Part shown: in pieces, positions 14,055 through 57,006 of the stretch
How positions within the stretch are numbered: position 1 is the stretch's first letter
How the letters are laid out: each line of letters begins with the position of its first letter
Assembly (NCBI GenBank): GCA_041389025.1
Contig: JAWKSP010000001.1
Span: 478,663-542,662 of the forward strand
Length of the DNA: 64,000 bases
From: Minisyncoccota bacterium
GTDB lineage: Bacteria; Patescibacteriota; Minisyncoccia; Phycocordibacterales; UBA918
Reading direction: 5' to 3'
Notes under the pieces: model-generated
Seen by the model: only the letters and a program-made list of their open reading frames with translations
Told to the model about the DNA's origin: nothing
Database searches by the model: none
Position numbers and translations under genes: made by a program

Positions 14055-14129
14055 TGGTGCCCTCGGCAGGAATCGAACCCACATTTCCTCCTTAGGACGG
14101 AGTAGTTCTATCCATTGAACTACGAGGGC
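14055..14129 (-). tRNA. tRNA-Arg (anticodon CCU)
   Basis: Minus strand GCCCTCGTAGTTCAATGGATAGAACTACTCCGTCCTAAGGAGGAAATGTGGGTTCGATTCCTGCCGAGGGCACCA. Cloverleaf folds with a 7-bp acceptor, D arm GTTC/GAAC, anticodon loop GUCCUAA, T-loop TTCGATT and encoded CCA. Confidence 0.8.
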
Positions 14130-14774: not shown

Positions 14775-14850
14775 GCTTGGGTAGCTCAGTTGGTAGAGCG
14801 CTTCCCTGAAGAGGAAGATGTCGTCGGTTCGAGCCCGACCCCAAGCACCA
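14775..14850 (+). tRNA. tRNA-Phe (anticodon GAA)
   Basis: GCTTGGGTAGCTCAGTTGGTAGAGCGCTTCCCTGAAGAGGAAGATGTCGTCGGTTCGAGCCCGACCCCAAGCACCA. Canonical cloverleaf with encoded CCA. Confidence 0.88.
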
Positions 14851-14899
14851 GTATATAAAATGCCTCCACATGGAGGTGTTTTATATACTGGTGCTTGGG
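14840..14899. repeat. 21-bp perfect inverted repeat containing the tRNA-Phe 3' end, flanking a GC hairpin (probable terminator)
   Basis: cccaagcaccagtatataaaa ... (gcctccacatggaggt) ... ttttatatactggtgcttggg. Confidence 0.55.
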
Positions 14900-18831: not shown

Positions 18832-20088
18832 ATGAAAACTATCAGTTACCAAGGGAGTATTCTAATATTCGGTCTAATTTTGACCGGCATAGCTACCTTA
18901 GTAGCAGGAACGATGATTATAGTAAGTAATGATAATATCTCCCCTGAAAAAGTAATTTATAACCACTCTACTAGCACAAATACTACAACCTTAGAAAAAA
19001 CTGAATTAGAAACAAAAACCGAAGATAAAATAAGTACAGAAACACAAACAACTACCAAATTAGAAAAAGTTGTCTTAGCTGGTGGTTGTTTTTGGTGTAC
19101 TGAAGCTTATTTTCAAGAAGAATTTGGTGTAATAGATGCTATCTCCGGCTATGCTGGTGGCCAAGCAGATACAGCTGACTACAAAACTGTCTCGACCGGA
19201 AAAACAGCCCATCGTGAGGCGGTGGAAGTAACTTTTGATCCGGAAAAAATTTCTCTTAAACAAATTTTGGATATATATTGGTCGCATATTGATCCAACCG
19301 ATGCGAATGGCCAATTTGCTGATCGAGGTTTTCAGTACACCACTGCTATTTTTTATAATTCAGAAAATCAAAAACAAATCGCTGAAGATTCAAAAGAACG
19401 CCTAAATAAAAGTGGTCTGTTTGATGAACCAATCGCTACCACAATCCTTCCCTTCACTACTTTTTTCCCCGCCGAAGAATATCATCAAAACTATTACCTA
19501 AAAGCAGCTGACTACTACAATCAATATAAAAAAGCATCTGGGCGAACGGATTTTATTGAAGAAACCTGGGCTAAAGATGCGGCACTTCATTTTTTAAATG
19601 ATAAAACTGATATAAAAACCGATAATACCAGTGTTGATATTTGGAAACCAAAAACATATAACGAGAAAGAGATTTCTACTTTACAAAAAAAATTACCAGA
19701 AGAGACTTATCATATAGTAGCTGAAAACGGTACTGAACCAGCCTTTAACAATCAATACTGGAACAACCACGAAGCTGGTATCTACGTCGATGTTGTAACC
19801 GGTGACCCCCTTTTCTCTTCTACTCACAAATATGACTCAAACACCGGTTGGCCAAGTTTTTACCAAACCATAAAAAACGCCCCCGTGACCGAGCATCAAG
19901 ACCTAGATTATGGCCTTGTTCGTATAGAGGTAAGAAGTCAAGGCGGACACCTTGGTCATATATTTAATGATGGACCAAAAGAACACGGTGGCTACCGTTA
20001 TTGCATAAATTCTTTGGCTTTAAATTTTGTGCCAAAAAACAAAATGCTTGAAGCCGGCTACGGCGATTATCTTTATCTATTTGACTGA
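18832..20088 (+). CDS. msrAB: Membrane-anchored bifunctional peptide methionine sulfoxide reductase MsrA-MsrB fusion (extracytoplasmic type)
   Basis: N-terminal TM plus Thr-rich linker. MsrA active site GGCFWCTEAYF. MsrB motifs GWPSF and RYCINSLAL. Confidence 0.85.
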   Translation: MKTISYQGSILIFGLILTGIATLVAGTMIIVSNDNISPEKVIYNHSTSTNTTTLEKTELETKTEDKISTETQTTTKLEKVVLAGGCFWCTEAYFQEEFGVIDAISGYAGGQADTADYKTVSTGKTAHREAVEVTFDPEKISLKQILDIYWSHIDPTDANGQFADRGFQYTTAIFYNSENQKQIAEDSKERLNKSGLFDEPIATTILPFTTFFPAEEYHQNYYLKAADYYNQYKKASGRTDFIEETWAKDAALHFLNDKTDIKTDNTSVDIWKPKTYNEKEISTLQKKLPEETYHIVAENGTEPAFNNQYWNNHEAGIYVDVVTGDPLFSSTHKYDSNTGWPSFYQTIKNAPVTEHQDLDYGLVRIEVRSQGGHLGHIFNDGPKEHGGYRYCINSLALNFVPKNKMLEAGYGDYLYLFD

Positions 20089-20156
20089 TAACTAAAATAG
20101 ATAGAGGTAAATTTAAGATATTTAATAATATAAATTAAAAAAATAAAATTTGACTT

Positions 20157-20732
20157 ATGGAAGAAAACAATAGTAACAAAGGTATTATTACTATAATAGT
20201 TGTACTACTAATTATTGGATTTATTGCTTTTATGACTCTTAATGGCGATGACTCAATGGAAGAAAATATACTAGGAGAAAGCGAAATGATGATGGAAGAA
20301 AGCGAAACTGTTCCCGAAGGAGCGATGATGGAAAGTACTGAAGGAAATACTGATGCCATGATGGAAGAAGAAAAAGGCGGTGCGATGATGGAGCAATCGA
20401 ACAGTACAATGACCGAACACCAAACAGTAGCTGGATCTTATGAAGCTTATTCTACCGATAAATTAGCCCTGGCCAATGAGGGTGATGTAGTTTTATTTTT
20501 TCACGCCAGTTGGTGTCCGTCTTGTCGTGCAGCTGATAAAAGCATAAAGGAAACTGGTGTACCAGACGGCCTTACCATTCTAAAACTTGATTATGACAAA
20601 GAAACTGAATTAAAGAAAAAATACGGCGTAACTACCCAACATACTTTTATTCAAGTTGATGCCGACGGAAATTTGATTAAAAAATGGAGCGGAGCTTCAA
20701 ATGTTGATGCTATTGTGGCTGAAATTATTTAA
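20157..20732 (+). CDS. Membrane-anchored thioredoxin-like protein with a Met/Glu-rich repetitive linker (extracytoplasmic thioredoxin, Etrx-like)
   Basis: TM anchor. Five MM(E)E repeats (SMEEN..EMMMEESE..AMMESTE..AMMEEEKGGAMMEQS). Thioredoxin fold with WCPSC active site. Confidence 0.75.
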   Translation: MEENNSNKGIITIIVVLLIIGFIAFMTLNGDDSMEENILGESEMMMEESETVPEGAMMESTEGNTDAMMEEEKGGAMMEQSNSTMTEHQTVAGSYEAYSTDKLALANEGDVVLFFHASWCPSCRAADKSIKETGVPDGLTILKLDYDKETELKKKYGVTTQHTFIQVDADGNLIKKWSGASNVDAIVAEII

Positions 20733-20738
20733 AGTCTT

Positions 20739-22463
20739 ATGACCTTACTTATTATTTCTTTTATAGCTGGAGCATTAACAGTCTTAGCCCCTTGTATATT
20801 ACCGTTATTACCGGTAGTGATTGGTGGCTCAGCGACCGACCATAAAAATCCTTGGAAACCTTATATCATCACCGCATCACTAGCAGTATCAGTAATTGTC
20901 TTTACCCTACTACTTAAGGCTACAACATTGGTTATTGATATACCTCCATCATTTTGGAAGTGGTTTTCTGGTGGTTTACTTCTGCTTTTAGGAATAATAC
21001 TTATCTTCCCATCACTTTGGGAAAAACTTAAGTTCAACGCTGTTATAAATAATAGTTCACAAAAACTGTTAGCCAAAGGAAGTAACAAACAAAGTGTGTG
21101 GGGAGATATCCTCATGGGGGCTGCTTTGGGACCAGTCTTCTCGACTTGTTCACCAACTTATTTTGTGATTTTAGCGACCGTACTCCCTAGCTCATTTGGA
21201 CTTGGTTTGGTCTATCTACTAGCCTACACACTTGGCTTGTCACTAGTTTTAATTTTAATTGCTCTTTTAGGACAAAAGCTCGTATCCAAGCTTTATGGAG
21301 CAGCCGATTCACGAGGCTGGGTTAAACGAGGTATGGGTATACTAATTGCCTTAGTTGGACTAGCGATAGTAACCGGTGTAGATAAAAAAATAGAAACCGC
21401 GATTCTTGATGCTGGCTTCCTAGATATAACAAAGTTCGAACAAAACCTGCTTGATAAAGTCGATGACAATAAAAATAGTGAGACTATGGATGTGTTAAAA
21501 AATACCAGTCTACCGACCAATCAAAAAATTATTGCTCCAGAGCTAACTGGTATTGAAAGCTATCTAAACACTGCCGAACAACCGATTACTTTAGAACAAT
21601 TTCGCGGTGAAAAAATAGTTTTATTAGATTTCTGGACCTATAGCTGTATCAACTGTAGACGCACCATTCCCCACTTAAATGATTGGTACAATCGTTATCA
21701 CGACCAAGGTTTGGAGATTATTGGTGTCCATACACCGGAATTTTCTTTTGAACAAAAAAGAGAGAACGTTGAAAAAGCAATAACCGAATTTGGCATAAAA
21801 TATCCGGTGGTGCTTGATAATGGTTATGCGACTTGGCGAGCTTTTGGTAACAAGTACTGGCCACGCAAATATCTAATAAACGAAAAAGGTGAAATCATCT
21901 ATGACCATATTGGTGAAGGAGCCTACGAAGAAACTGAAAAAGTGATTAGGGACGCTTTAGAAAAATTAGGTAGCAAACCAAAAGATAGAGTAGGTGAAGT
22001 AAAAAATTTGACTGAGGTAAATTTTAAATCAATCACTAGTCCGGAGATATACTTTGGGGCTAAACGTAATCAATATCTAGCTAATGGAAGATTAAATGAA
22101 GTTGGGGTACAAAATTTTTTCCTACCAGAAAATATAGAAACAAATAAACTGTATCTTAAAGGTGACTGGGAAATAACCAACGAATACGCCGAGAGCATGA
22201 ATGAAAACAATGAGATAGTTTTTGAGTTTACTGCCAAAGAAGTATATATGGTATTAGGAAATAACTTCCCTACATCAGCCGAAATATTTATTGATGACAA
22301 ACCAATTACTAAAGATAATTCTGGTGTCGATGTAGTAAAAGGTACATTAAACATAGAGGATGAAAAAATGTACCATATCTACACCGATATTGAGTACAAA
22401 ACCCATAAGTTAAAGTTAAAAGTTAAACCAAAATTCCGCGCTTTTACTTTTACTTTTGGTTAA
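20739..22463 (+). CDS. ccdA: CcdA/DsbD-family transmembrane thiol:disulfide electron transporter fused to a thioredoxin-like (TlpA/ResA-type) domain and a C-terminal ~170-aa domain
   Basis: N-terminal LTVLAPCILPLLPVVIG (CcdA Cys-containing helix) and 6 TM. Central FWTYSCINCRR CxxC thioredoxin-like motif. Confidence 0.75.
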   Translation: MTLLIISFIAGALTVLAPCILPLLPVVIGGSATDHKNPWKPYIITASLAVSVIVFTLLLKATTLVIDIPPSFWKWFSGGLLLLLGIILIFPSLWEKLKFNAVINNSSQKLLAKGSNKQSVWGDILMGAALGPVFSTCSPTYFVILATVLPSSFGLGLVYLLAYTLGLSLVLILIALLGQKLVSKLYGAADSRGWVKRGMGILIALVGLAIVTGVDKKIETAILDAGFLDITKFEQNLLDKVDDNKNSETMDVLKNTSLPTNQKIIAPELTGIESYLNTAEQPITLEQFRGEKIVLLDFWTYSCINCRRTIPHLNDWYNRYHDQGLEIIGVHTPEFSFEQKRENVEKAITEFGIKYPVVLDNGYATWRAFGNKYWPRKYLINEKGEIIYDHIGEGAYEETEKVIRDALEKLGSKPKDRVGEVKNLTEVNFKSITSPEIYFGAKRNQYLANGRLNEVGVQNFFLPENIETNKLYLKGDWEITNEYAESMNENNEIVFEFTAKEVYMVLGNNFPTSAEIFIDDKPITKDNSGVDVVKGTLNIEDEKMYHIYTDIEYKTHKLKLKVKPKFRAFTFTFG

Positions 22464-26377: not shown

Positions 26378-27240
26378 ACAACACAAATCAATTTCAAGCA
26401 ACCCAAAATTTGCGATATAATCATAAAGTTTTGAAGCGTACATTTATTACCGTAACCCTACTTGCGATACCAGTTATCGTCAGTGCCACATACAACCCCA
26501 TCAAACTCAGTGAAGAAACTGTTTCATCAACCGACCCTAAAAAACCTTCACCGATATATGTTCAGATAATAACCTCAAAAGAATACGAAGAGGAGTTAAG
26601 GAAGAAAAAAGAAGAAAAAAAAGTTGCTTCCACTCAAACTAACGACGACAACACAACACGAAGCCTTACTCCTCCACTATCACAAAAAACAGAGAGTGTC
26701 TCCATCCGGCGCACGACCCAAAAATCTGCTCAAAGTGCTGAAAACAACTTCTTTGTTCCCTTTTACTCTCAATTTTCTGATATAACAAACCCTAGTCGAC
26801 AAAAAATAGGTTGCGGTGTGGCTGGTCTGGCTATGATAATTGAATATTATAAAGGAGAAAAAGTGTCGGTTGATAGTTTGTTTGAAACCGGTTTAGAAGC
26901 CGGAGCTTACCTAGAAGACGCTGGCTGGATCCACTCAGGCCTGATAAACTTATCCAAAAAATATAAATTAGATGGTGAGAGTAAAGACTTTAGCTACTTA
27001 GACAAAGAAGGAGCTTTAGCTAAATTAGAAACAGCACTAGAAACAGGACCGGTGCTGGCTTCAGTTCACTATACTTTTGAACCAACCAACCCTATACCAC
27101 ATCTGGTAGTAATAAATGGTCTTGAAAACAACATTATCCATTATAACGATCCGGCTGAAAAAACTGGTGGCGGCACCATAAGTAAAGAAAAATTCTTAAA
27201 AGCTTGGAAAAACCGCTTTATTGAAATCAGGCCAGTTTAA
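26338..27240 (+). CDS. Peptidase C39-like (papain-fold cysteine peptidase) domain protein, membrane-anchored
   Basis: QKIGCGVAGLAMIIEYYKG (catalytic Cys context) and HLVVINGLENNIIHYNDPA (His context). The listed start overlaps the previous gene by 40 nt, so the true start is uncertain. Confidence 0.5.
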   Translation: MGYFRDKSYCQRLDNTNQFQATQNLRYNHKVLKRTFITVTLLAIPVIVSATYNPIKLSEETVSSTDPKKPSPIYVQIITSKEYEEELRKKKEEKKVASTQTNDDNTTRSLTPPLSQKTESVSIRRTTQKSAQSAENNFFVPFYSQFSDITNPSRQKIGCGVAGLAMIIEYYKGEKVSVDSLFETGLEAGAYLEDAGWIHSGLINLSKKYKLDGESKDFSYLDKEGALAKLETALETGPVLASVHYTFEPTNPIPHLVVINGLENNIIHYNDPAEKTGGGTISKEKFLKAWKNRFIEIRPV

Positions 27241-27311
27241 ATTTAAAAAACCACTTCTGTATATTAGAAGTGGTTTTTTAAGTTTAATCTAAATTAATTC
27301 ATAACGATAAT

Positions 27312-29872: not shown

Positions 29873-29937
29873 ATCTTCCCGCCAGAAATTTGGCGGTTTT
29901 TATTTGCTTTTTTGATCAATCGCCATACAATAACAAT

Positions 29938-30801
29938 ATGCCAGAACTACCAGAAGTCGAAACCGTTCGACTACAACTATTAAATAAAATTATCGACAAA
30001 CCGATCAAAAAGATTGAAGTATTTCACCCCAAAACAGTTGCTCAAGATAAACACTTTACAAAAAAACTTATAGGTAAATCTTTTTCCGGAATTGATCGTG
30101 TCGGTAAATTAATGATTTTTAACTTTTCCAATGAAAACAATCTTCATCTTTTGGTGCACCTGAAGATGACTGGGCAATTTTTCTACGTCGATAAAAAAGG
30201 TATTTTAGGCGGTGGTCACTTTGGTTCTGATAAAGACAGTCTGGGTTTACCCAACCGTCACACCAGAGTGGCTTTTCATTTTACCGATAACTCTTCCCTA
30301 TTTTTCAACGATATGCGATTGTTTGGTTATGTAAAAATTACTGATACAAATGAAACAGAAAGAGCAAAAGCCAAATTTGGACCGGAACCAATCTCGGACA
30401 ATTTTAATTATGAAGAGTTCGCTAAGAAATTAAAACAGAGAAATACTAGTATTAAAGCAGTACTTTTAGACCAATCATTTATTGCCGGTCTTGGTAATAT
30501 CTATGTAGACGAAGCTCTATATTTAGCTAAAGTTAGACCGACTAGAAAAGCTAGTCAGGTTACCAAAAAAGAAGCGTTTGCTATCGCTGAAGCTGGTGGT
30601 GAAATAATGAAAAAATCCATTGAGGTAGGCGGTACCACCTTTCAGCATTTTGTCGATACTGGTGGTGAAACTGGAAACTACACTGATTATCTAAAAGTGT
30701 TTGGTAAACAAAACACCGAGTGCCCCGTCTGTGGTACCATCATAAAAAAGACTCGAGTAGCGGGACGCGGTACCCACTACTGTCCCAAGTGTCAAAAATA
30801 A
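29938..30801 (+). CDS. mutM: Formamidopyrimidine-DNA glycosylase (Fpg/MutM)
   Basis: N-terminal MPELPEVETVR (catalytic Pro2/Glu3). H2TH region. C-terminal zinc finger CPVCGTIIKKTRVAGRGTHYCPKCQ. Confidence 0.88.
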   Translation: MPELPEVETVRLQLLNKIIDKPIKKIEVFHPKTVAQDKHFTKKLIGKSFSGIDRVGKLMIFNFSNENNLHLLVHLKMTGQFFYVDKKGILGGGHFGSDKDSLGLPNRHTRVAFHFTDNSSLFFNDMRLFGYVKITDTNETERAKAKFGPEPISDNFNYEEFAKKLKQRNTSIKAVLLDQSFIAGLGNIYVDEALYLAKVRPTRKASQVTKKEAFAIAEAGGEIMKKSIEVGGTTFQHFVDTGGETGNYTDYLKVFGKQNTECPVCGTIIKKTRVAGRGTHYCPKCQK

Positions 30802-30803
30802 GT

Positions 30804-31466
30804 ATGAACATAAACATTGAAACCAGTTGGCAAAAAACTTTGACTAAAGAGTTTGAAAAACCGTATTTTAAAAAGCTGACTGACAAAGTTCGTGAGGCTT
30901 ATCTAAAAGAGGTTATTTATCCGCATCCTAAAAATATTTTTAACGCTTTTTCTCTTTGTCCATTTAACGAGGTGAAAGTAGTAATATTAGGACAAGATCC
31001 TTACCACGGACTTGGCCAAGCACACGGCCTTTGTTTTTCGGTACCAGACGGTGAAAAAATTCCACCCTCACTTAAAAATATTTATAAAGAAATCAATAAC
31101 GATCTGGGAAAAGAAATACCGGAATCCGGTAATTTAGGAAGGTGGGCTAAGCAAGGAGTGTTACTTTTAAACGCTACTTTGACTGTGCGAGCCGGCTACG
31201 CCGGCTCGCACCAAGGCCTCGGCTGGGAGACTTTCACCGACACAATCATCAAAACCATCTCTGAGCAAAAAGAGCACGTGGTCTTTCTACTTTGGGGACG
31301 CTACGCTCAAGCTAAAACTAGTCTAATAGATAAGAACAAACACCTCATCCTCACCGCACCACACCCCTCCCCACTTTCCGCTCACAACGGCTGGTTTGGT
31401 AGCAAACATTTCAGCCAAACCAACATCTACCTAAAAAAACACAACCAAAAACCAATTGAGTGGTGA
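30804..31466 (+). CDS. ung: Uracil-DNA glycosylase (family 1)
   Basis: GQDPYHGLGQAHGLCFSV water-activating motif, LLLNATLTV, and HPSPLSA C-terminal motif. ATG at 30804 directly follows the mutM stop. Confidence 0.88.
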   Translation: MNINIETSWQKTLTKEFEKPYFKKLTDKVREAYLKEVIYPHPKNIFNAFSLCPFNEVKVVILGQDPYHGLGQAHGLCFSVPDGEKIPPSLKNIYKEINNDLGKEIPESGNLGRWAKQGVLLLNATLTVRAGYAGSHQGLGWETFTDTIIKTISEQKEHVVFLLWGRYAQAKTSLIDKNKHLILTAPHPSPLSAHNGWFGSKHFSQTNIYLKKHNQKPIEW

Positions 31467-31491: not shown

Positions 31492-33081
31492 TTAAGCTAA
31501 CCCCGGGAAGAAATCTCGTACGATTTGTTTACTTGGAACACCAAGTTTCTTGAGAAGACCCGTATAAGCATCCACCATACCGGACGGACCGGATATGTAC
31601 CAAGTTCGCTCTAGATAATCCGGTAAATGTTTCTTGATTATTTCTTCTGTTACGTACCCAGCTTCACAACCGGCTATATTTTCTTTTGCTAAAACATTAA
31701 CTACTTTGAAAGGCAAAACTTCCGTTAAACTATCTAGCTTATCTTTATAAGCAATCTCTGTAGCAAAATTGTTACAATAGAATAAAGTTGTTTCATGTTT
31801 ATTTCCGTTACTATTCATTGCTTCTAAATGACTCAAAAATGGTGTAATACCAATACCACCAGCTACAAAAGCTAATTTTTCTCCTGACTTATCCGGTAAA
31901 AGAAAATCTCCAGCTAATTGACTGGCAATAATAGTATCGCCTATATTCATGTCCTTTAGTTTTGTTTTGTAACTACTAACCTTGTCACCAAACCGTACAG
32001 CCATTTTTAGAAAGTCTATGTCAGGAGCAGAAGCTATAGTAAAATATCTTCGAATACCTCGACTGTCCATATTTTCATGTGGTAACATCCATTCCAAATA
32101 TTGACCTGCCTTAAAGTCCATACCGGCTGGTTTTTCAAATACAAATTCCCAAGTATTTTTTGCTACCTCCCTTTTCTCTACCAACTTCAAAACTAGTTTC
32201 TGCCGTAGTCTGGTACCATAAAAAACCAAATTACCGATAATAAGGGCTAATTCTGGAGTAATCATGATAAATGAAACAAATAAAGCAGTTTGTGACAAAA
32301 AACCTACCAGAGCCGCGTAAGTTATTTGCATCTTTTTAGTTGACGGCATCGTAAATGGTTCGGTCAACATATAAAGAGCTAAAAACAGACTAGGGCCCAT
32401 CAACCAGAAGTTTAACCAAGTTTCAGTAACATCAAAACCAAATCGCCATTCTTCAAACAAAAAAGTTACAAAAGCAACCGCAAGAAAAGTGAGTACCGGA
32501 ACCCATTTTCTTACTTTAAGAACCACCGCACTACCTACTAACAAAAGTGGAATAAATAAGGCTGGTGTACCAACCCACCAAGCCGATTCAAAATACCCAA
32601 ACGATGGAAATATAAGAAAAAGCAAAGCCAAAGCAAATACACCAAACGCCGCTGGATTAAAAATATGTTGGCCTTTTCTCGCCACTACAAATTTTGACAA
32701 AATCGCCAAAAATGTAACTGCAGCAATCAACCATAAATCACCTATTTCTGATAACTGAGTTGGTAAAACTAGGAAGAATATAATAAGTGCAGTAATGATA
32801 GCTGACTCATTATTTACATGTACTTTAAACAACTTACCTAAAATGATGTTTACCACCAGAGCCACCGCTAAAGCAGTAATCAAAGAAAGTACCTGTTCCA
32901 GCCCGCTATATGCTAAAACACCAAAGAAACCTAATATTATTGAATAACTGGCCAATATTGATAATGACAAAGTTACCGTTCGATACATCGCTATATTGTC
33001 TAGCTTTGCCTTAATTAACTGAAATATTTTTTTCACAAGACCGTAACAAGATTTAACGTTTAATTGAATAAGTTGATACAT
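31492..33081 (-). CDS. Fusion protein: NqrB/RnfD-like polytopic membrane domain + C-terminal ferredoxin-NADP reductase-like FAD/NAD(P)-binding domain
   Basis: Membrane part contains GQHIFNPAAFGVFALALLFLIFP (compare NqrB NFLNPALAGRAFLFFAYP). C-terminal RRYFTIASAP (RxYS FAD motif) and AFVAGGIGITPFLS (GGxGxxP NAD(P) motif). Confidence 0.65.
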   Translation of the reverse strand: MYQLIQLNVKSCYGLVKKIFQLIKAKLDNIAMYRTVTLSLSILASYSIILGFFGVLAYSGLEQVLSLITALAVALVVNIILGKLFKVHVNNESAIITALIIFFLVLPTQLSEIGDLWLIAAVTFLAILSKFVVARKGQHIFNPAAFGVFALALLFLIFPSFGYFESAWWVGTPALFIPLLLVGSAVVLKVRKWVPVLTFLAVAFVTFLFEEWRFGFDVTETWLNFWLMGPSLFLALYMLTEPFTMPSTKKMQITYAALVGFLSQTALFVSFIMITPELALIIGNLVFYGTRLRQKLVLKLVEKREVAKNTWEFVFEKPAGMDFKAGQYLEWMLPHENMDSRGIRRYFTIASAPDIDFLKMAVRFGDKVSSYKTKLKDMNIGDTIIASQLAGDFLLPDKSGEKLAFVAGGIGITPFLSHLEAMNSNGNKHETTLFYCNNFATEIAYKDKLDSLTEVLPFKVVNVLAKENIAGCEAGYVTEEIIKKHLPDYLERTWYISGPSGMVDAYTGLLKKLGVPSKQIVRDFFPGLA

Positions 33082-33130
33082 TATAGTATAAATATACTAA
33101 CTTTAAAATTAATATTTTCATCACCTTGAT

Positions 33131-33583
33131 ATGCCAATTGTTTTTATAATTATCGGAGTAATAATCCTCGCTTTGGGTTACACTTTCTTTTTCAGTAACG
33201 ACACAAAGACTGACGATACAACAGACACAAAAACAGAAGTAAACACCACAAAAGAAAACAACGTAGGTGACAAAACCTTACCAACAAGCTCTACCCCACA
33301 AACTTTCACTCAAAAAGCCACTTACGTAAATCCCAGCCGTAAAACTCAAGAAATTGAAATTATTTTGGAAGTAAATGATGGTATGGTAACCAACTCTCAA
33401 GTAAAATATGACGGCAAAGACAGTGGTTACGCCAATAAATACCAAGAGCGTTTTGATGAAGTATACAAATCTGAAGTGATTGGCAAAAAACTTGACCAAA
33501 TACACCTGTCTCGTGTTGGCGGAGCTTCTCTTACTTCAGAAGCTTTCAACAATGCAGTAGCTGACATCATCAGCCAAAGCTAA
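33131..33583 (+). CDS. Membrane-anchored FMN-binding domain protein (NqrC/RnfG/PplA-like FMN_bind)
   Basis: N-terminal TM and Thr-rich linker. C-terminal LSRVGGASLTSEAFNNAVADII matches the D-x-x-SGAT-x-TS flavinylation motif (Ser in the T/S position). Confidence 0.6.
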   Translation: MPIVFIIIGVIILALGYTFFFSNDTKTDDTTDTKTEVNTTKENNVGDKTLPTSSTPQTFTQKATYVNPSRKTQEIEIILEVNDGMVTNSQVKYDGKDSGYANKYQERFDEVYKSEVIGKKLDQIHLSRVGGASLTSEAFNNAVADIISQS

Positions 33584-34498
33584 ATGTCTACGATACTACC
33601 GGAAATCAAAGCTTTAGGCACAGTCTGGTGGATTGAAATTTTTACTGATTTGGACGATAAAAGAACCGAGACCGTCTACGACGGTCTCGGTTCTTTTATC
33701 GACATTTTTGAAGCCAAATACTCTCGCTTCAAACCAGATTCTTTGATAACCAAACTAAACACTACCGGCATTCTGGAAAATCCAGACCAAATGACCATTG
33801 AAATATTAAAATACGGACAAGATTTATATAGACAAACTGACGGCTTATTTAATTTTCTAATTGGTGAAATATTAGAAAATCGCGGTTATGATGCCTTATA
33901 TTCATTTAAAATAAAAGAAACCAAGGTAAAAATTCCCAACCCTTTAACTGATTTAGAAATTAATGATGACAAAATTATTTTAAAATCCGGTCGAGTTGAT
34001 CTGGGTGGATTTGGTAAAGGTTATTTAGTTGATTTGTTGTCTGTTGAGCTAAAAAACATTTATCAATTACCTTATTTTTTAATTAACGGTGGTGGGGATA
34101 TTTACGCTAGTAGTGACAATGGAGAACCGGTAGAAATTTATTTAGAACACCCGATACAAACCGGCACATTTATTGGTAGCACCACTTTACTAAACCAAGG
34201 CTTTGCCGCCTCCAGTCCTCATAAAAGACAGTGGAAAATAAAAGATAAAACCTACAATCACATAGTAAATACGACTCAAAAAAATGACAGTGATAATAGT
34301 GATGATAAAAATAATGGAATTGACGGAACTTTTGTAAAAGCAGAAACAGTGGCGAAAGCTGACGCTTTCGCCACTGTTTTCCTCCTTATCAACCCCAATC
34401 AAATTCATAAAATAGCAACAGGAAATAAAGTAAAAGCTTGCTATCTTTTAGACAACAAGCTTTTAACAGAAAGAGGTTTTAATCATATCTTACCTTAA
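33584..34498 (+). CDS. apbE: FAD:protein FMN transferase (ApbE family)
   Basis: VDLGGFGKGYLVD, INGGGDIYA and KADAFATVF ApbE motifs. Start ATG abuts the upstream stop (translational coupling). Confidence 0.8.
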   Translation: MSTILPEIKALGTVWWIEIFTDLDDKRTETVYDGLGSFIDIFEAKYSRFKPDSLITKLNTTGILENPDQMTIEILKYGQDLYRQTDGLFNFLIGEILENRGYDALYSFKIKETKVKIPNPLTDLEINDDKIILKSGRVDLGGFGKGYLVDLLSVELKNIYQLPYFLINGGGDIYASSDNGEPVEIYLEHPIQTGTFIGSTTLLNQGFAASSPHKRQWKIKDKTYNHIVNTTQKNDSDNSDDKNNGIDGTFVKAETVAKADAFATVFLLINPNQIHKIATGNKVKACYLLDNKLLTERGFNHILP

Positions 34499-34993: not shown

Positions 34994-35620
34994 CTACCCC
35001 TCCTTCGCCACAATCATTGCTTTTACTCTCATAGTAGACACCACCGCGTCACGAGCACGTTCGTCTAGTTGCATAGAGATGAACTTAATGGTTTCTTGTA
35101 GGTTTGGTATCATCACATTCTCCAAAGCCGATACACGACGGCGGGTTTTTTCAATTTCATCAGCTAGATTTTCAGCCGTTTTCTCAAGTTCGGCTAAGCG
35201 AATAATATCAACAAAGACCTCGTCAAATTTACTAATCGCATTATCTAAATCTCCTGAAGTATCCAAAAAACCATACGAAAAGGCGGAACCTTCTTTAGTG
35301 ATCTTAAACTCCGGAATCTTTACCGACATCACAGTCTTGATATCGACTTCAAGTGAAGTCTTAGCATTTGGTACTAAAAGAGCCACTTCTTGAGCTAATC
35401 TAGAAGTCATTGCACTTGATCGTTGATAAGAATCAAAAGCCATACCCAAACGCTCCTCGACTGAACGACGAAGATCACGTGCTTCATAGATAATCACCAT
35501 GAACTTTTTGATTAGTCCATCTCGCTTATCTTTTAGCAACTTATGTCCCTTCTTAGCCACTTTCAATTCTTTTTTAAGATTCAAAAGTGCGATTCGGGTT
35601 GGGCTGACTTTTAATATCAT
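34994..35620 (-). CDS. atpD: V-type ATP synthase subunit D (NtpD)
   Basis: MILKVSPTRIALLNLKKELKVAKKGHKLLKDKRDGL N-terminus typical of V/A-type D. Last gene of the operon. Confidence 0.85.
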   Translation of the reverse strand: MILKVSPTRIALLNLKKELKVAKKGHKLLKDKRDGLIKKFMVIIYEARDLRRSVEERLGMAFDSYQRSSAMTSRLAQEVALLVPNAKTSLEVDIKTVMSVKIPEFKITKEGSAFSYGFLDTSGDLDNAISKFDEVFVDIIRLAELEKTAENLADEIEKTRRRVSALENVMIPNLQETIKFISMQLDERARDAVVSTMRVKAMIVAKEG

Positions 35621-35638
35621 AGTCTTAGTTTAACAAAA

Positions 35639-37033
35639 TTAAGCAGTAGTTTTCTCCCCAGTCTTTGGCATGTATTTATCCACCATATCAGACTTTACAC
35701 GCTTTAAAGTTTCGCGTGGAAGCATGGCAAGTAATCTCCATCCAATATCTAATGATTCTTCAACTGAACGGTTTTCAAACTCTCCTTGCCCAACAAACTC
35801 TCTTTCAAAAGCGTCAGCAAAACGTAGGTGGGCTTTATCATTTTCATCAAGTGAAGCTTCTCCTAACACAACCGCAAGCTCTCGTACTTCACGACCAACC
35901 GCGTAAGAAGCGAACAATTGATCCTTGAGTTCTTTATGATCATCACGAGTTTTTCCTTCTCCTACTCCAGCTGACCAAAGTCGTGACAATGAACCTTGTA
36001 CGTCCACTGGTGGAAAAATGCCTTTCCGGTAAAGTTCACGAGAAATCACAAACTGTCCTTCAGTGATGTATCCGGTAAGGTCCGGCACCGGATGAGTACG
36101 ATCATCATCCGGCATACTGAGAATCGGAATCTGAGTGATAGTTCCCGATCGACCTTTAATACGACCAGCTCGTTCGTAAATGGTAGAGAGGTCAGTATAT
36201 AAGTACCCAGGGTACCCACGACGCCCCGGTACTTCTTTTCGCACTGAAGACACTTCACGCAAAGCTTCACAGTAGTTGGTCATATCAGTTAGAATTACAA
36301 GTACGTGCATATCTTTTTCAAAAGCCAAATACTCGGCTGTAGTTAAAGCCATACGTGGTGTAGAAATACGTTCTACCACTGGGTCGGCAGCGGTGTTGAT
36401 GAAAAGTACACTTCGCTCTAGCGCTCCAGCATCTTGGAACTGACGCTTGAAGTATTCAGCTTCTTCAAAAGATACACCAAGAGTAGCAAATACGATGGCA
36501 AATTCTCCGCCATCTTTCACCTTTGCCTGACGAGCGATCTGCGCTGCTAGACGTGAATGTGGTAAACCAGAACCAGAGAAAATCGGCAGCTTTTGACCAC
36601 GCACTAAAGTATTCATTACATCAATTGAAGCAATACCAGTTTGAATAAAGTCATTTGGAAACTCACGACTGTATGGGTTAATCGCGTTACCGTTGATGTC
36701 GATCTTCTTTTCTGGAATCAACTCCGGACCACCATCAGCTACCACACCAGCACCAGTAAACACTCGACCAAGCATATCCTCTGTCACTCCAAGCTTAAGA
36801 GTTTCTCCTCGAAAACGCACCTTAGTACCTTCGGCTTGTACTCCAGCCGTCGGATCAAACATTTGTACCACCGCCTTATTCTCTGACACATCAAGTACCT
36901 TTCCAAAGCGAGTTTTAGTTTCTCCTGGCACACTTACTTCTACTAACTCCTCGTATTTTACCCCACTCACTCCTTCAACTACCAAAAGCGGTCCGGTGAT
37001 TGATGATACTGTTTTGTATTCTTTTTGACTCAT
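35639..37033 (-). CDS. atpB: V-type ATP synthase subunit B (NtpB)
   Basis: 464 aa; conserved non-catalytic nucleotide-binding fold ([18 protein letters not shown]...). Confidence 0.9.
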
Positions 37034-37057
37034 ATCTTTTTCTTAATTTATCTTTAT

Positions 37058-38848
37058 TTAGGCTAAAGTGTTTATTTCTTCTTTAACTCTTTGCATAAAT
37101 GACTGATAAGCTACCTCTTCTTTGTTTTCTTTCAATCGACCAACTTCTTTAAAAGTTTCCATTTGTTTAAATTTAGCAAAATCAAAATCTTCCTTACCAA
37201 CCACCACTTGACCTTCATTATAGAAAGTAACAATTGATTTAAGAAGATTATACTGAATCTTAATTGACATATAAGCATCTTCCGGATCAAAAGCGTTTTG
37301 CATCAAGAAGTCTTCACGTAGCATACGCGCTACTTCAAGAGTAAGTTTGTCAGAGTTAGACAATGACTCCATACCAACTAAGCGTACAATCTCCATCAGC
37401 TTAGACTCCTTTTCCAGAAGTTCCATGGCTTGCTTGCGCACCTCTGCAAAATCCGGAGCTACTTCATTTTTCCAAAAGTCAGTAAAGTTATCAACGTACA
37501 ATGAATAAGAAGATAGCCAGTTAATGGTTGGAAAATGTTTCTTGTAGGCCAAATCAGCGTCTAGTGACCAGAAAGTTTTAGTCACACGTAAAGTAGCTTG
37601 TGATACTGGTTCTGACAAGTCACCACCAGGAGGTGACACAGCACCAATCACAGTCAATGAACCTTGTCGCCCTTCTGAACCCAAAGTCTCTACTACACCA
37701 GCCCGTTCGTAGAACTGAGCAGTACGTGAAGATAAGTAAGCTGGGTACCCTTCCTCCCCTGGCATTTCTTCGAGACGTCCGGATATTTCACGCATCGCCT
37801 CCGCCCAACGTGAGGTTGAATCCGCCATCAAAGCTACGTGATAACCCATATCACGGTAGTACTCAGCAATAGTAATACCCATATACACAGATGCTTCACG
37901 CGCTGCCACTGGCATATTGGAAGTATTAGCAATCAAAATTGTTCGTTTCATTAAAGGTTCACCAGTATTAGGGTCAATCAGGTGTGGAAATTCAGACAGT
38001 ACTTCAGTCATCTCATTACCACGTTCACCACATCCGATATAAACAATCACTTGCGCATCACAGTACTTAGAGATTGACTGTTGAGTCACTGTCTTTCCTG
38101 CTCCAAACGGCCCAGGAATAGATCCTGCTCCACCTTTAGCAATTGGAAAAAAAGTATCAATCGAACGACCACCAGTTAGAAGAGGACGAGATGGGAAAAT
38201 CTTTTTATTCTTAGGACGCGGTTCTCGAATTGGCCAGTATTGCAACATTGCTATCGACACCACTTCTCCACTCTCAGTTTTTATTTGAGCTATAGTTTCT
38301 GTAATATTAAAACTACCTGATTTTACTTCAGTAATCTCACCGGAAACGTTTGGTGGTACCATCACTTTATGTACAATCAATTTAGTTTCATCCACTTCAC
38401 CCAAAATATCTCCACCCGTCACTTTATCTCCTACTTTAGCGGTTGCTTTGAAATCCCACTTTTTGGTTTTGTCCAAAGCTTCTGCATCAATTCCGCGTTT
38501 TATATAAAAAGTACCAGAAGCGTCTTCAATACTTTTAAGTGGACGTTGCACTCCATCGTAAATAGACTCAAGCAAGCCTGGAGCCAAAGCAGCTGACATA
38601 GTTTTTCCGGTACGATACACCGCATCCCCTGGACCAATACCGGTAGTATCTTCGTATACTTGAATAGAAGCCACATCACCATGCAATTCAATTACTTCAC
38701 CAAGCAACATTTCCTCTGATACTTTCACCAATTCGTACAGTCTAGCTTCAGACATACCATTAGCCCGTACCAACGGTCCGGTTACACGGACGATTTGTCC
38801 GGTTTTCATTTCTGTATTTGTTTCTTGTGTATTTGTTGAATTTGTCAT
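37058..38848 (-). CDS. atpA: V-type ATP synthase catalytic subunit A (NtpA)
   Basis: 596 aa. Walker A GPFGAGKTV. Non-homologous insert region typical of A subunits. Confidence 0.92.
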   Translation of the reverse strand: MTNSTNTQETNTEMKTGQIVRVTGPLVRANGMSEARLYELVKVSEEMLLGEVIELHGDVASIQVYEDTTGIGPGDAVYRTGKTMSAALAPGLLESIYDGVQRPLKSIEDASGTFYIKRGIDAEALDKTKKWDFKATAKVGDKVTGGDILGEVDETKLIVHKVMVPPNVSGEITEVKSGSFNITETIAQIKTESGEVVSIAMLQYWPIREPRPKNKKIFPSRPLLTGGRSIDTFFPIAKGGAGSIPGPFGAGKTVTQQSISKYCDAQVIVYIGCGERGNEMTEVLSEFPHLIDPNTGEPLMKRTILIANTSNMPVAAREASVYMGITIAEYYRDMGYHVALMADSTSRWAEAMREISGRLEEMPGEEGYPAYLSSRTAQFYERAGVVETLGSEGRQGSLTVIGAVSPPGGDLSEPVSQATLRVTKTFWSLDADLAYKKHFPTINWLSSYSLYVDNFTDFWKNEVAPDFAEVRKQAMELLEKESKLMEIVRLVGMESLSNSDKLTLEVARMLREDFLMQNAFDPEDAYMSIKIQYNLLKSIVTFYNEGQVVVGKEDFDFAKFKQMETFKEVGRLKENKEEVAYQSFMQRVKEEINTLA

Positions 38849-38884
38849 GGTAATAAAATTATTATTAGTAAAATCTTTTAAATA

Positions 38885-39241
38885 TTAAATAATCGCTGCC
38901 CCTACCGCTTTCTCAGCCAACTGTCTAAGTCTAGCTTCAGCCAAGCCTTGACTACCTTTAGCACTCGGTAAAATAACCACTGCCGGCAAAGGCCCAGCCA
39001 CCACCCTACTATACTCTTTATCGTCAATTCCTTTTAATAAATCTTCAATGATACAAACCACTGCATAAACCACTCCCCCGCCAGTAACAGTCGCTTGTTT
39101 TATTTCTTTCAGTCTATCTAGCATTTCACTTGCATCATGAGCTATAATCGCCTCTACTCCCAAGGCCCGAAATCCTGACACAGTATCTGCAGGACCAATA
39201 ATGGCCACTTTATATACTAGATTTTGATCAGAATTAGACAT
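38885..39241 (-). CDS. atpF: V-type ATP synthase subunit F (NtpG)
   Basis: 118 aa; VAIIGPADTVSGFRALGVEAI motif. Confidence 0.7.
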   Translation of the reverse strand: MSNSDQNLVYKVAIIGPADTVSGFRALGVEAIIAHDASEMLDRLKEIKQATVTGGGVVYAVVCIIEDLLKGIDDKEYSRVVAGPLPAVVILPSAKGSQGLAEARLRQLAEKAVGAAII

Positions 39242-40211
39242 AAGCTTTGGTTAAATGTTTTAAAATAAACTCATTATCTTGTCCGTTTTCTTTCCCGACC
39301 AAGATAGTTTGGAGTCGTTTGGCACTATTTTGGCATTGCCAAAAATAAAATACCAAAGAGGCTGGAGAAAATATATCATGACTTAGGTCAGCTACCGCAT
39401 CGGTAAAGTACTCATCTAAAGCCAGCTCTATTAAAGTTAAATGTCCAACCTGATTATATACATCAAAAGCTTCTCTATACTTAGTCTCATTACCGAACTG
39501 ACCAATCATAGACACAACCTGATCTTTTGTTTCTATTTGTGCCAAACCGATATTTCCTCCTTCAACAAACCAATCGTCTGAAGATTGATTGATTTGTAAA
39601 GTTCTTAATCTGGTCTTGAGATTGTAGACATCAATTTGTAGTCGCAATATCTTGTCTAAAGTTAAGTCCTTAGTTGCTGTAATCATTCTTTTAGCTAGAC
39701 GAAAATAATTTCTATCAATGACAAAATCTGCTTCAGCCAACCCTTTCTCTTCAGCCGTCTTGATAGCTTCTTCGTAAATATCAACTAATTCTGGTTCCAA
39801 TCGATTAAGTGTATTATTGTTTACGTGTTCAAGCAAAGTTTCTGGTTCATACTTACTTAGTCTTGACCAACTATTTTTAAAAGTTTCTTCACTTAATCCA
39901 ACTTTTTTAGCTTTTACAAAAATCCGTAAATTATGCAAATCATAACGTATCCACAACCAATCAAACTTACTAGTCTGAGGAGCAATACTTGATATGAGAT
40001 ATTTAGATTCAAACAGACTTTTGTCCAAAGCTTTAAAAATATCTTCATTTTTTTCACCCTCTAAAAACTTTACCAAATAAGTTTCCTTTACTGCTTTAAC
40101 AAATTCTTCCCCACGTGAAGTAGTAAGTAGACGATCTACATCAGAATCACTTAATAACTCTTTAGCAAGAGCTTTGACTCGACTGACACTGTAGATGTAG
40201 GAGGTTTCCAT
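39234..40211 (-). CDS. atpC: V-type ATP synthase subunit C (NtpC; V0 d-type)
   Basis: 325 aa; operon position and size match NtpC. Confidence 0.7.
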   Translation of the reverse strand: METSYIYSVSRVKALAKELLSDSDVDRLLTTSRGEEFVKAVKETYLVKFLEGEKNEDIFKALDKSLFESKYLISSIAPQTSKFDWLWIRYDLHNLRIFVKAKKVGLSEETFKNSWSRLSKYEPETLLEHVNNNTLNRLEPELVDIYEEAIKTAEEKGLAEADFVIDRNYFRLAKRMITATKDLTLDKILRLQIDVYNLKTRLRTLQINQSSDDWFVEGGNIGLAQIETKDQVVSMIGQFGNETKYREAFDVYNQVGHLTLIELALDEYFTDAVADLSHDIFSPASLVFYFWQCQNSAKRLQTILVGKENGQDNEFILKHLTKAYV

Positions 40212-40238
40212 GTAATAAATTTAGTAAATTAATTATGA

Positions 40239-40817
40239 TTATTTACTACCTGAAAATAAAATAGCAGCAATTTCTGTTTCAGATAATAAGCGGTCTTCAG
40301 CAAACATTTTTTCTAACGATAAGTTAAACTCAAAATCCTCACCCACCAAAATACATCCGCCTTTTAATTTATCATCAGATTTTATTTCAGCCGACCAACC
40401 AAGGTCGCTTGCGACTTTTTTTGTTTCTTCAAAACGACTGTTAGGAGCTAAAACAAAAGAAATTTTTGCATCAGACGGTACCACAGATCGATATCTGTTT
40501 TTTAGTAAAGATATATAATCTTCACTGGAAATATTTAGTAGTTGTTTTAAAGCTTCATCATAAACCTCATCTAGCAATCTCCTTTTTACTGATTGTTTTG
40601 CTAAGCTAGTTTTTTGCTTTTCAAGGGAAGATACTACTGATTCTCTTTGTGATTGTTCTTTTTGTAAAAATTTCAAACTTTCTTCTTCAAGACCAGCTAC
40701 CTGCTCCTTGGTTTTTTTGTCTATTAAAACCACCTCCTCCTCAGCTTTCGCTATGATAGAAGTTGCTTCAGCCTCAGCTTCTTTTCTTATTTTGTTAGTA
40801 ATTTCTTGTAGCGCCAT
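40239..40817 (-). CDS. atpE: V-type ATP synthase subunit E (NtpE)
   Basis: 192 aa; N-terminal long coiled coil (MALQEITNKIRKEAEAEA...) plus C-terminal globular part. Confidence 0.7.
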   Translation of the reverse strand: MALQEITNKIRKEAEAEATSIIAKAEEEVVLIDKKTKEQVAGLEEESLKFLQKEQSQRESVVSSLEKQKTSLAKQSVKRRLLDEVYDEALKQLLNISSEDYISLLKNRYRSVVPSDAKISFVLAPNSRFEETKKVASDLGWSAEIKSDDKLKGGCILVGEDFEFNLSLEKMFAEDRLLSETEIAAILFSGSK

Positions 40818-40844
40818 TTAGTTGTAAGTTATTATCTTTAATCT

Positions 40845-41339
<495 letters not shown>

Positions 41340-41371
41340 TTATAAAAAATAAAGATACCTCGCAAAAACAA

Positions 41372-47874: not shown

Positions 47875-48660
47875 ATGTCTGAAAAAACTGAGAAATACGT
47901 AATTTTAGAAAAAGCAGTTGGTGAAACACCACTAGAATGTACTGAAAAGTGGCGTAAGACTAGACCAGATTTAGCCGGAGTGCCGTTAGCTTACGCCGGT
48001 CGTCTCGACCCAATGGCTTCGGGACAACTTTTAGTGTTGGTTGGTGAGGAGTGTAAAAAACAAACTGAATATCATAACCTTGATAAAGAATATGAGTTTG
48101 AAATTTTGTTTGGTGTTTCTTCTGATTCTGGTGATGTGCTAGGTATCATTACAGAGACCACTAAAAAAGTTATTGATGAAAATGAAATAAAATCCGTTTT
48201 AGAAAATATGATTGGTGACATTGAACTACCCTACCCAATCTTTTCCTCAAAGACAGTTAAAGGTATACCACTTCACACCTGGACTATGGAAGGAAGATTA
48301 AATGAAATAGAAATTCCCACCCGCAAATCAAAAATTTATGAACTAGAACTTTTAGAAACAAAAGAACTAACAAGAGAAGACATAGCTAAAATTACTCTTG
48401 AAAAAATTGAAACTATCCCCCCAGTCACCGATAAAAGAAAAGCTCTGGGTAATGACTTTAGAAGGCCGAAGGTGCGGAAAAGTTGGCAAAGCTTTGCCAA
48501 CTTTTCCGCACCCGAAGACCGCTTTACTATCGCAAAAGTCCGCTGCCTTTCATCTAGCGGAACCTACATGCGCACTTTAGCGGAAGTTATAGCTGAAAAA
48601 CTAGGTTCAAAAGGACTAGCTTTTAGTATTCATCGAACACAAGTATTTTTAACTAATTAA
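47875..48660 (+). CDS. truB: TruB-family tRNA pseudouridine synthase-like protein
   Basis: LAYAGRLDPMASGQLLVLVGEECKK matches the TruB catalytic-Asp motif (GxxGxLDPxAxGxL) and downstream KxY segment. Confidence 0.6.
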   Translation: MSEKTEKYVILEKAVGETPLECTEKWRKTRPDLAGVPLAYAGRLDPMASGQLLVLVGEECKKQTEYHNLDKEYEFEILFGVSSDSGDVLGIITETTKKVIDENEIKSVLENMIGDIELPYPIFSSKTVKGIPLHTWTMEGRLNEIEIPTRKSKIYELELLETKELTREDIAKITLEKIETIPPVTDKRKALGNDFRRPKVRKSWQSFANFSAPEDRFTIAKVRCLSSSGTYMRTLAEVIAEKLGSKGLAFSIHRTQVFLTN

Positions 48661-56948: not shown

Positions 56949-56993
56949 CTGGAATTAAAAACACCCCTTTAAGGGGTGTTTTTAATTCCAGCT
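56947..56993. terminator. 47-nt perfect palindrome; bidirectional terminator between rpmG (+) and fba (-)
   Basis: agctggaattaaaaacacccc-tttaa-ggggtgtttttaattccagct. Confidence 0.6.
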
Positions 56994-57006
56994 ATTTTCT
57001 TACCAC

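Follow-up and report, generated by a model that had tools for sequence, protein, structure and literature searches.

What do three adjacent genes for flavin-dependent proteins do in a bacterium whose relatives are thought to have no electron-transport chains? This question is raised by a locus in a 64,000-nucleotide stretch of a Minisyncoccota genome (assembly GCA_041389025.1, contig JAWKSP010000001.1, positions 478,663 to 542,662, forward strand), and the whole of this stretch is called the window below. Bacteria of the candidate phyla radiation (CPR; Patescibacteria) are believed to lack such chains, yet most of them keep a rotary ATPase, and the energy source of this enzyme is an open problem. 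In our opinion, the three genes encode, with a probability of about 60%, an NQR/RNF-like system of flavin-based transmembrane electron transfer, from NAD(P)H to an acceptor outside the cell. Few membrane redox devices are encoded in the CPR, and the module is one of them; it lies beside an ATPase, in a gene neighbourhood that persisted when V- and F-type enzymes replaced one another. The genes and those of their parts that carry the argument are as follows (hhalign is a comparison of sequence profiles).

31492 to 33081, minus strand: NqrB/RnfD–FNR fusion (FNR, ferredoxin-NADP reductase), 529 amino acids by the longest open reading frame (ORF)
32197 to 33081, minus strand: membrane domain of the fusion, residues 1–295, an N-terminal helix and 10 helical segments with the RnfD/NqrB fold
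31495 to 32196, minus strand: cytoplasmic FAD/NAD(P)H reductase domain of the fusion, residues 296–529, with RRYFT, GGIGITP and the C-terminal DFFPGLA
32566 to 32610, minus strand: short loop, residues ~158–172, on the outer side, where RnfD and NqrB carry the flavinylated Thr; the segment with this Thr is missing here (it faces a gap in hhalign)
33131 to 33583, plus strand: FMN_bind protein, ORF of 150 amino acids
33527 to 33529, plus strand: codon of Ser133, the predicted FMN acceptor in SRVGGAS, from the family alignment
33584 to 34498, plus strand: ApbE, ORF of 304 amino acids

The original prediction, an earlier reading of the letters of the window, had taken the largest protein for a fusion of an NqrB/RnfD-family membrane domain with an FNR-type reductase, and this assignment is confirmed by domain profiles, fold and motifs. 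PF03116 (NQR2_RnfD_RnfE) matches at 51.5 bits (cut-off 27.7), and PF00175 (NAD_binding_1) matches the C-terminal part of the same polypeptide at 57.6 bits (cut-off 22); PF00970 (FAD_binding_6) reaches 18.4 bits, slightly under its cut-off of 21.1. The motifs HIFNPAAFG (residues 139–147), RRYFT (344–348, an FAD motif of the RxY[ST] type) and GGIGITP (408–414) are present. The nearest NCBIfam families are rnfD, RsxD and NqrB for the N-terminal half and flavohaemoprotein, MmoC, BenC and NqrF-type reductases for the reductase half, which also matches NqrF, FNR and the reductase domains of flavohaemoglobins in sequence and fold searches of the Protein Data Bank (PDB).

The AlphaFold2 model of the fusion (pLDDT 94.2, pTM 0.90) shows ten helical segments in the membrane, preceded by an N-terminal helix and followed by an FNR fold. 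When the membrane half was modelled alone, the top 15 PDB matches in Foldseek were all RnfD or NqrB chains (probability 1.00, TM up to 0.68), RnfD being the best of them; urea transporters ranked after these, as is expected for such a fold. In the search with the whole fusion, FNR matches dominate. A sequence-profile search of the PDB with the membrane domain gave only a match to RnfD at E=0.96, and the assignment was therefore settled by structure prediction, Foldseek and hhalign together. The last of these aligned the domain with E. coli RsxD at a probability of 95.3% and brought the NxES-type, QHxxNPA and FFMLTEPFT/FFILTDPVT motifs into register. NxES, QHxxNPA and MLTEPFTxP are invariant in the membrane domains of the family, and 58 residues are invariant across 75 sequences of the fusion.

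In the same alignment, about 80 residues of RsxD (~152–231), including the segment GIDGISQAT187PLD, face a gap, and hence the loop that bears covalent FMN has been deleted from the fusion. A motif search found no [ST]GA[ST] in the fusion, which bears out the earlier statement that the NqrB-like domain has no SGAT-type site. By analogy with the topology of RnfD/NqrB, ten segments and a cytoplasmic reductase would make the shortened loop face outward.

The genes of the FMN_bind protein and ApbE are the next two after the fusion gene and are divergent from it. They had been described as a translationally coupled pair, and indeed the stop codon of the first abuts the start codon of the second, in frame (agc TAA ATG). 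Recoding of this stop codon, giving a single FMN_bind–ApbE protein with a membrane anchor, was considered and rejected because the junction stop is TAA and long ORFs under translation table 11 are normal throughout the window.

The FMN_bind protein is hypothetical in public records. It has an N-terminal hydrophobic helix (residues 3–21), which looks uncleaved by hydropathy, then a linker and an FMN_bind domain (74–147); its close two-domain homologues match the whole PF04205 profile at 26–33 bits. The linker is strongly acidic (81 D/E versus 23 K/R in 19 sequences). The flavinylation motif GGASLTS, to which attention had been drawn before, is present and is conserved as LSRVGGASLT[ST], and its Ser133, invariant in 19 of 19 aligned homologues, is the predicted acceptor of covalent FMN. 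An hhalign comparison with E. coli RsxG, which covers the motif region only and is not statistically significant alone, places Ser133 on the acceptor Thr of FDQFTGATITP. Other flavinylation targets in the window were limited to chance [ST]GA[ST] matches. A distant homologue in the related locus L050 has a lipoprotein-type signal with a lipobox, which speaks for a position of the FMN_bind protein outside the membrane. Three further homologues (P0122, P0131 and P0154) of about 280 amino acids contain the FMN_bind domain twice in tandem, with SR[VI]GGASLT in both copies, and would be forms of the partner that are flavinylated at two sites. The second gene of the pair encodes a protein matching PF02424 at 103.7 bits, which aligns end to end with the signal-less crystal constructs of E. 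coli/Salmonella ApbE. Its catalytic and FAD/Mg motifs (DLGGFGKGY, NHI and ADAFAT, of the form ADAxxT) are kept and align with those of solved ApbE structures.

The module is a member of a class that has already been published and is not new. Published work describes the NQR/RNF-like system as a flavinylation-associated gene cluster, with ApbE or FMN_bind within five genes, in which an N-terminal PF03116 domain is fused to a C-terminal PF00175 domain; it was found in 127 genomes, mainly of Actinobacteria and CPR (PMC8238504). The complex of Ktedonobacter was modelled with two subunits only, the flavinylation Thr of NqrB/RnfD not being conserved in it, and the AlphaFold-multimer model docks the partner's covalent FMN at the flavin site that the NqrB-like subunit has on its outer face (PMC10979944). 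Outward electron flow is taken in both analyses (PMC8238504, PMC10979944). The window module has PF03116, the fused PF00175 and the flavinylation cluster. There as here, the flavinylated Thr is absent from the NqrB-like domain, and an NqrC/RnfG-like FMN_bind partner and apbE belong to the cluster. The CPR are one of the two main host groups, a one-way path from NAD(P)H to the outside is proposed, and nothing essential differs in the window module.

The fused architecture, which the original prediction had called unusual, proved to be common, besides defining the published class. When the membrane domain alone was used in an exhaustive profile search, 466 clusters (representatives at 50% identity) matched at E<=1e-30, and almost all of the best 150 of them have the fused length of about 500 amino acids. 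Among the 120 best database matches, all of about this length, 115 carry both PF03116 and PF00175 in precomputed annotation and the other five PF00175 only. The window protein itself is 100% identical to the protein P0001 of a Candidatus Paceibacterota metagenome-assembled genome, named "RnfABCDGE type electron transport complex subunit D" by NCBI. For a comparison of loci, one genome per species was scanned; this gave 61 related loci (designated by L numbers), all in Patescibacteria, with fusion identities of 34–64%. The trio of fusion, FMN_bind and ApbE is kept in about 52 of them. Two of these loci, L029 and L035, are fusion copies on one contig (JABAZV010000018.1), about 30 kb apart; one copy adjoins FMN_bind, ApbE and a V-ATPase, and the other adjoins only FMN_bind, with no detectable ApbE.

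The electron path may be outlined as follows. Cytoplasmic NAD(P)H would reduce the FAD of the C-terminal NqrF-like domain, as its fold and motifs suggest, and the electrons would then enter the RnfD/NqrB-fold domain, whose own covalent-FMN loop is lost and which presumably holds a non-covalent flavin, just as RnfD and NqrB hold riboflavin. From there they would pass to the covalent FMN predicted on Ser133 of the single-pass NqrC/RnfG-like partner at the outer face of the membrane and leave to some extracytoplasmic acceptor. ApbE would install FMN on the partner. Most transcripts are probably terminated or stabilised behind the substrate gene by a hairpin inside apbE, and the enzyme would be made below the level of its substrate.

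A number of observations weigh against this outward path. No acceptor gene is encoded near the module, and no experimental study of the NQR/RNF-like class was found in the literature after the genome-based descriptions. The FMN_bind protein exceeds the PF04205 cut-off of 22 bits only slightly (22.4 bits, profile positions 5–76 of 77), only 7 of the 19 family members match this profile, and a sequence-profile search of the PDB with the family gave no NqrC/RnfG match. The motif S-R-V-G-G-A-S deviates at two positions (Asp to Ser and [ST] to Gly) from the canonical D-x-x-[ST]-G-A-[ST], in which replacement of Asp by Ala has only minor effects (PMC12052999). The charges flanking the anchor leave its orientation ambiguous: the N-terminal tail has 1–3 uncharged residues, and a single K/R often stands straight after the helix.

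To the same side belongs the absence of a signal peptide and lipobox from ApbE, in the window, as had been noticed, and in every related locus; a signal-less ApbE with a presumed external substrate is a topological puzzle. The part of about 37 residues that forms the signal and lipobox of E. coli-type ApbE is missing in all related loci. Residue 7 of the window protein corresponds to position 38 of the NCBIfam profile of that type, and ApbE starts 5–12 residues before the first fold motif, ALGTxWW, here and in all related loci. A missed upstream start or signal peptide is excluded, because the gap between the FMN_bind stop and ApbE is 0 nt in the window and -4 to +10 nt in about 42 of 53 loci, which leaves no room for it. 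In L050 the partner has a lipoprotein-type signal, yet ApbE is signal-less as well. It is possible that the FMN_bind protein is flavinylated in the cytoplasm before export; its motif lies some 15 residues before the C-terminus as a short linear tag of a kind on which ApbE can act (PMC12052999). Other possible solutions are that the partner faces the cytoplasm or that ApbE follows an unconventional route. How and where an exported protein obtains its flavin is a concrete question, which is testable even if no ions are moved.

The surroundings of the module bear on its possible link with energy conversion.

34994 to 43366, minus strand: complete V-type ATPase operon I-K-E-C-F-A-B-D, with Pfam matches on all eight subunits, convergent with apbE
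29890 to 31466, plus strand: genes of MutM (Fpg) and UDG (uracil-DNA glycosylase), identified by Pfam, UDG being convergent with the fusion gene

The K subunit of the window has its best match in the Na+ K-ring of E. hirae (2bl2, E 2.9e-28), and its LPGSQG, FQG and VET are aligned to the ligand positions, which we take to be L61, T64, Q65, Q110 and E139; the Na+-type V-ATPase recognised in the window earlier is thereby substantiated. No other respiratory-chain genes were found among 40 further ORFs scanned in the window, as had also been claimed. NqrD/E (RnfA/E) and NqrA (RnfC) were found neither among the scanned ORFs of the window nor in loci L001 and L002, where the called genes were examined.

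Of the 24 loci with full 10-kb flanks, 15 have a rotary ATPase no more than 10 kb from the module (30 of 61 overall, within the available flank); the enzyme is missing in the other nine and in all deep-branching members. Three arrangements occur: a V-type enzyme beyond apbE, as in the window; an F-type enzyme in the same place (L001, L006-L008, L010, L012, L015 and L051); and an F-type enzyme downstream of the fusion on the same strand (loci within L032-L058), where atpB of L045 starts 176 nt after the fusion. In L036, L041 and L058, a glucose-6-phosphate-isomerase-like (pgi-like) gene with the motif IGIGGSNLG is placed between the fusion and atpB on the same strand. The neighbouring V-type K subunits all have the Na+ pattern, and most of the F-type c subunits look H+-type, that of L015 having the Na+-type ESTxxY pattern.

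In a neighbour-joining tree of the fusions, loci with a downstream F-type enzyme form one clade, those with an upstream F-type enzyme form another, sister to the group of the window, and V-type neighbours occur in at least three clades. Because the arrangements are spread over the tree in this way, the linkage with ATPases must be old; it has outlived changes of ATPase type and has been lost several times; the types look like they were replaced in place between clades. UDG and MutM, which adjoin the fusion in most loci with an upstream V- or F-type enzyme, are about as conserved beside the module as the ATPase, and inherited synteny is therefore a serious alternative to a functional link. No residue column of the fusion separates loci with Na+-type from those with H+-type neighbouring ATPases. 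The relay put forward in the original prediction is supported: its path from NAD(P)H through the membrane to a flavoprotein, with the FMN_bind protein as the ApbE substrate, is the published model. Its ion-coupled variant is unsupported so far.

Several other explanations should be weighed against outward electron transfer, and one of them would rather add to it. It is possible, though improbable, that the module is a minimal redox-driven ion pump, whose NqrB/RnfD-like domain moves Na+ or H+ on electron passage between the partner flavin and its own, building or using the ion gradient in concert with the neighbouring ATPase. The fusion keeps the 10-segment fold, and its FFMLTEP motif, aligned with FFILTDP of RsxD, contains invariant F233, F/Y237 and E241, which we take to be equivalent to F338, F342 and D346 of NqrB. 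RnfD/NqrB is one of two proposed ion paths of NQR and RNF, gated by F338/F342, with NqrC docking on it (PMC12174285), while the conformational cycle of these complexes needs NqrD/E (RnfA/E) (PMC12174285), none of which is present here. ATPases of three kinds (V-type Na+, F-type H+ and F-type Na+), arranged in three ways, are close to the module in 15 of the 24 fully flanked loci, compared with a chance expectation estimated at about 4% for genomes of ~0.7 Mb; this proximity and the short distance to atpB in L045 speak for a pump. Against this, the block that includes equally conserved UDG and MutM may be inherited synteny without function, the ATPase is absent from 9 of the 24 loci and all deep-branching members, and the neighbouring ATPases differ in coupling ion with no column of the fusion splitting the groups. 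A narrower form of this idea is even more doubtful: a two-protein minimal ion pump, made up of nothing but an NqrB/RnfD-type channel subunit with its fused NAD(P)H input and an NqrC/RnfG-type flavin switch, and partnered with the only rotary ATPase of a cell without another respiratory chain, the FMN subunit being flavinylated in the cytoplasm by signal-less ApbE before export. If ions are moved, the module would be the smallest known relative of NQR and RNF and a clean system for the debate on whether RnfD/NqrB or RnfA/E is the ion path.

An arrangement in which all parts face the cytoplasm is likewise improbable. The FMN_bind protein would then be oriented N-out/C-in, be flavinylated by cytosolic ApbE and shuttle electrons between the FAD of the reductase and the cytoplasmic face, where an acceptor in the membrane, e.g. 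a scavenged quinone, would take them. Such a topology would explain why ApbE has no signal peptide, and no space for one, in about 52 loci, and it agrees with the short uncharged tail of the partner and the frequent single K/R directly after its helix. CPR bacteria are not known to make quinones, which counts against it, as do the excess of acidic residues in the linker (81 D/E against 23 K/R), favouring export, and the lipoprotein signal of the homologue in L050. Cytosolic ApbEs with cytosolic substrates are known (PMC12052999), and the riboflavin and quinone site of NqrB is located towards the cytoplasmic side in NQR (PMC12174285), but NqrC and RnfG have the opposite topology (PMC12174285) and the published AlphaFold-multimer model puts the partner FMN at the outer-face flavin site (PMC10979944). 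Reverse flow, in which an extracellular reductant (host flavin, quinol or reduced iron) would feed the outer FMN and finally reduce NAD(P)+, is very unlikely, although FNR-type domains are reversible and linkage to an ATPase would suit energy conservation by an episymbiont. This is the direction of RnfD in ion-exporting ferredoxin:NAD+ turnover, since RNF in its forward mode passes electrons from the FMN of RnfG through RnfD to the cytoplasm while exporting ions (PMC12174285). However, no candidate donor was found, there is no directional sign in the sequence, and the published analyses assume outward flow (PMC8238504, PMC10979944). There is hardly any reason to regard the genes as functionless paralogues, stray or in decay, of a complete RNF or NQR encoded elsewhere, even though the 64-kb window is only part of a contig of about 623 kb. 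The fused architecture and its partners are kept at 34–64% fusion identity over 61 species-level genomes, with the 58 invariant residues in 75 sequences, and the flavinylation loop was deleted specifically instead of decaying. No rnf or nqr gene was found in the scanned ORFs of the window or in the called genes of L001 and L002, and RNF and NQR flavinylation systems are reported to be under-represented in the CPR.

Returning to the NQR/RNF-like electron-transfer system as the preferred interpretation, it may be compared with better known systems. With Na+-NQR (NqrABCDEF) of Vibrio cholerae it shares the NqrB fold, an NqrF-like FAD/NADH domain and an NqrC-like partner flavinylated by ApbE (predicted here), and the C-terminal Phe of the fusion aligns near F406 of NqrF. 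Unlike Na+-NQR, it has no NqrA, no NqrD/E with an intramembrane 2Fe-2S centre, no ferredoxin domain of NqrF and no covalent FMN of NqrB. The semicircular electron path of that enzyme is impossible here, a quinone acceptor is not expected and ion pumping is hypothetical. The RNF complex (RnfABCDGE, with E. coli RsxD/RsxG as reference) is similar in the RnfD fold, the NxES-type, NPA and T[DE]P motifs and the RnfG-type acceptor region. In contrast to it, the module has no RnfA, B, C or E, misses the ~80 residues that hold the flavinylation site of RsxD and would receive electrons from NAD(P)H via the fused reductase, not from ferredoxin or RnfC.

Another similar system is the flavin-based one by which Listeria transfers electrons out of the cell (Ndh2/EetAB/PplA/FmnB); it is fed by NADH and leads to an ApbE-flavinylated FMN_bind protein on the outside of a single-membrane cell. 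A quinone pool takes part in it, its membrane proteins are unrelated to those here, and its FmnB is described as an exported lipoprotein whose flavin comes from a dedicated transporter (PMC9973259), in contrast to the signal-less ApbE of the window. In the MsrQ-like and PepSY-like fusions with PF00175 (PMC8238504) and in NADPH oxidases of the NOX type, a cytoplasmic FNR-type domain is also combined with a membrane conduit feeding an outer flavoprotein. Their conduits use haem, whereas the RnfD/NqrB fold is cofactor-poor here and presumably contains flavins only. The ApbE without an export signal, the linkage with ATPases and the apbE hairpin are apparently undescribed, as these features are absent from the text of PMC8238504 and PMC10979944, where the acceptor motif variant S-R-V-G-G-A-S is not mentioned either.

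The hairpin inside apbE was first flagged by a terminator scan, and another one is situated near the end of the same gene.

33655 to 33701, plus strand: perfect 22-bp hairpin with a 3-nt loop (the Tyr32 codon), in apbE codons 24–40, about 70 nt into the gene
34344 to 34379, no strand assigned: second perfect hairpin with 16-bp arms and a 4-nt loop, in the 3' part of apbE over ADAFAT, with a T-run on the minus strand

The first hairpin is terminator-like, having a GC core flanked by an A-tract and a T-tract. In 18 related loci (L003, L005-L009, L013, L015, L019, L022, L026, L030, L039, L047, L051, L056, L057 and L061), apbE has perfect stems of 13–22 bp with different sequences at the equivalent place, and strong hairpins fold there in about 35 of 49 aligned loci. 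In the alignment of 49 sequences, all 22 pairs change on both sides. Compensatory cells number 295, compared with 129 ± 10 in shuffles (0 of 500 reach 295) and 96–124 when the partner column was slid, and the covariation score is 0.527 versus 0.14–0.20 in controls (0.20 in shuffles, of which 0 of 500 reach 0.527). The ratio of G.U to A.C is 13:2 in hairpin-bearing sequences and 61:76 in the others, and this excess of G.U indicates selection on the sense-strand RNA.

The outer pairs of the stem are mostly A-U and the inner ones G-C, and the 3' T-tract contains 4.4 T per 8 nt in loci with the hairpin versus 2.2 in those without it. Its shape is that of an intrinsic terminator of the bidirectional type. 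No Rfam family was found for it at gathering or permissive thresholds. The hairpin is missing in L017, L018 and L020, where fusion, FMN_bind and apbE follow each other in this order on one strand, and in deep branches. It would act as an intragenic attenuator or 3'-stabiliser, by which the substrate gene is expressed above the enzyme gene, although the two have no intergenic space between them. As a clear example of an RNA structure held by covariation within a coding sequence, it is open to testing. The second hairpin is common only to the close relative L009, with compensating changes, and may terminate the convergent ATPase operon.

One more element is found between the divergent genes.

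33084 to 33099, no strand assigned: 16-nt palindrome TAGTATAAATATACTA in the 49-nt intergenic region between the fusion and FMN_bind genes

An element like TAGTATAAT recurs in the divergent intergenic region of L001, L004, L005, L006, L008, L010 and L051, and TTTATACTAGTATAAA occurs in that of L038 and L039. The palindrome TAGTATAAATATACTA probably represents back-to-back, overlapping -10 boxes of divergent promoters and is possibly an operator in addition. The start of the fusion is ambiguous (33036-33081), the longest ORF giving 529 amino acids and the NCBI annotation 514. A promoter-like TATAAT on the minus strand (33085-33080) overlaps the upstream ATG of the fusion gene, and the shorter form of 514 amino acids is therefore favoured.

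Some minor observations concern other parts of the window. A set of genes for thiol repair in the envelope (18832..22463, plus strand) encodes an MsrA-MsrB fusion, a thioredoxin and a DsbD/CcdA membrane domain fused to AhpC/redoxin and Thioredoxin_10; the first two proteins each have an N-terminal extension. With this set the window contains a second route for electrons to the cell envelope. An IS110-family transposase gene (15237-16310, minus strand) adjoins tRNA genes at 14058-14129 (minus) and 14775-14847 (plus), and a 29-nt inverted repeat lies near them at 14840-14899. A perfect 42-nt palindrome, GGTGCGGAAAAGTTGGCAAAGC / GCTTTGCCAACTTTTCCGCACC, is located at 48471-48512 within the coding sequence of truB, about 150 nt before its stop codon, and the gene that follows is convergent. 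The intergenic regions 2233-2741, 27234-27290 and 56942-56998 contain near-perfect hairpins of unusual length (20-29 bp), several of them in series after a subtilase gene; their appearance is that of very strong or bidirectional terminators.

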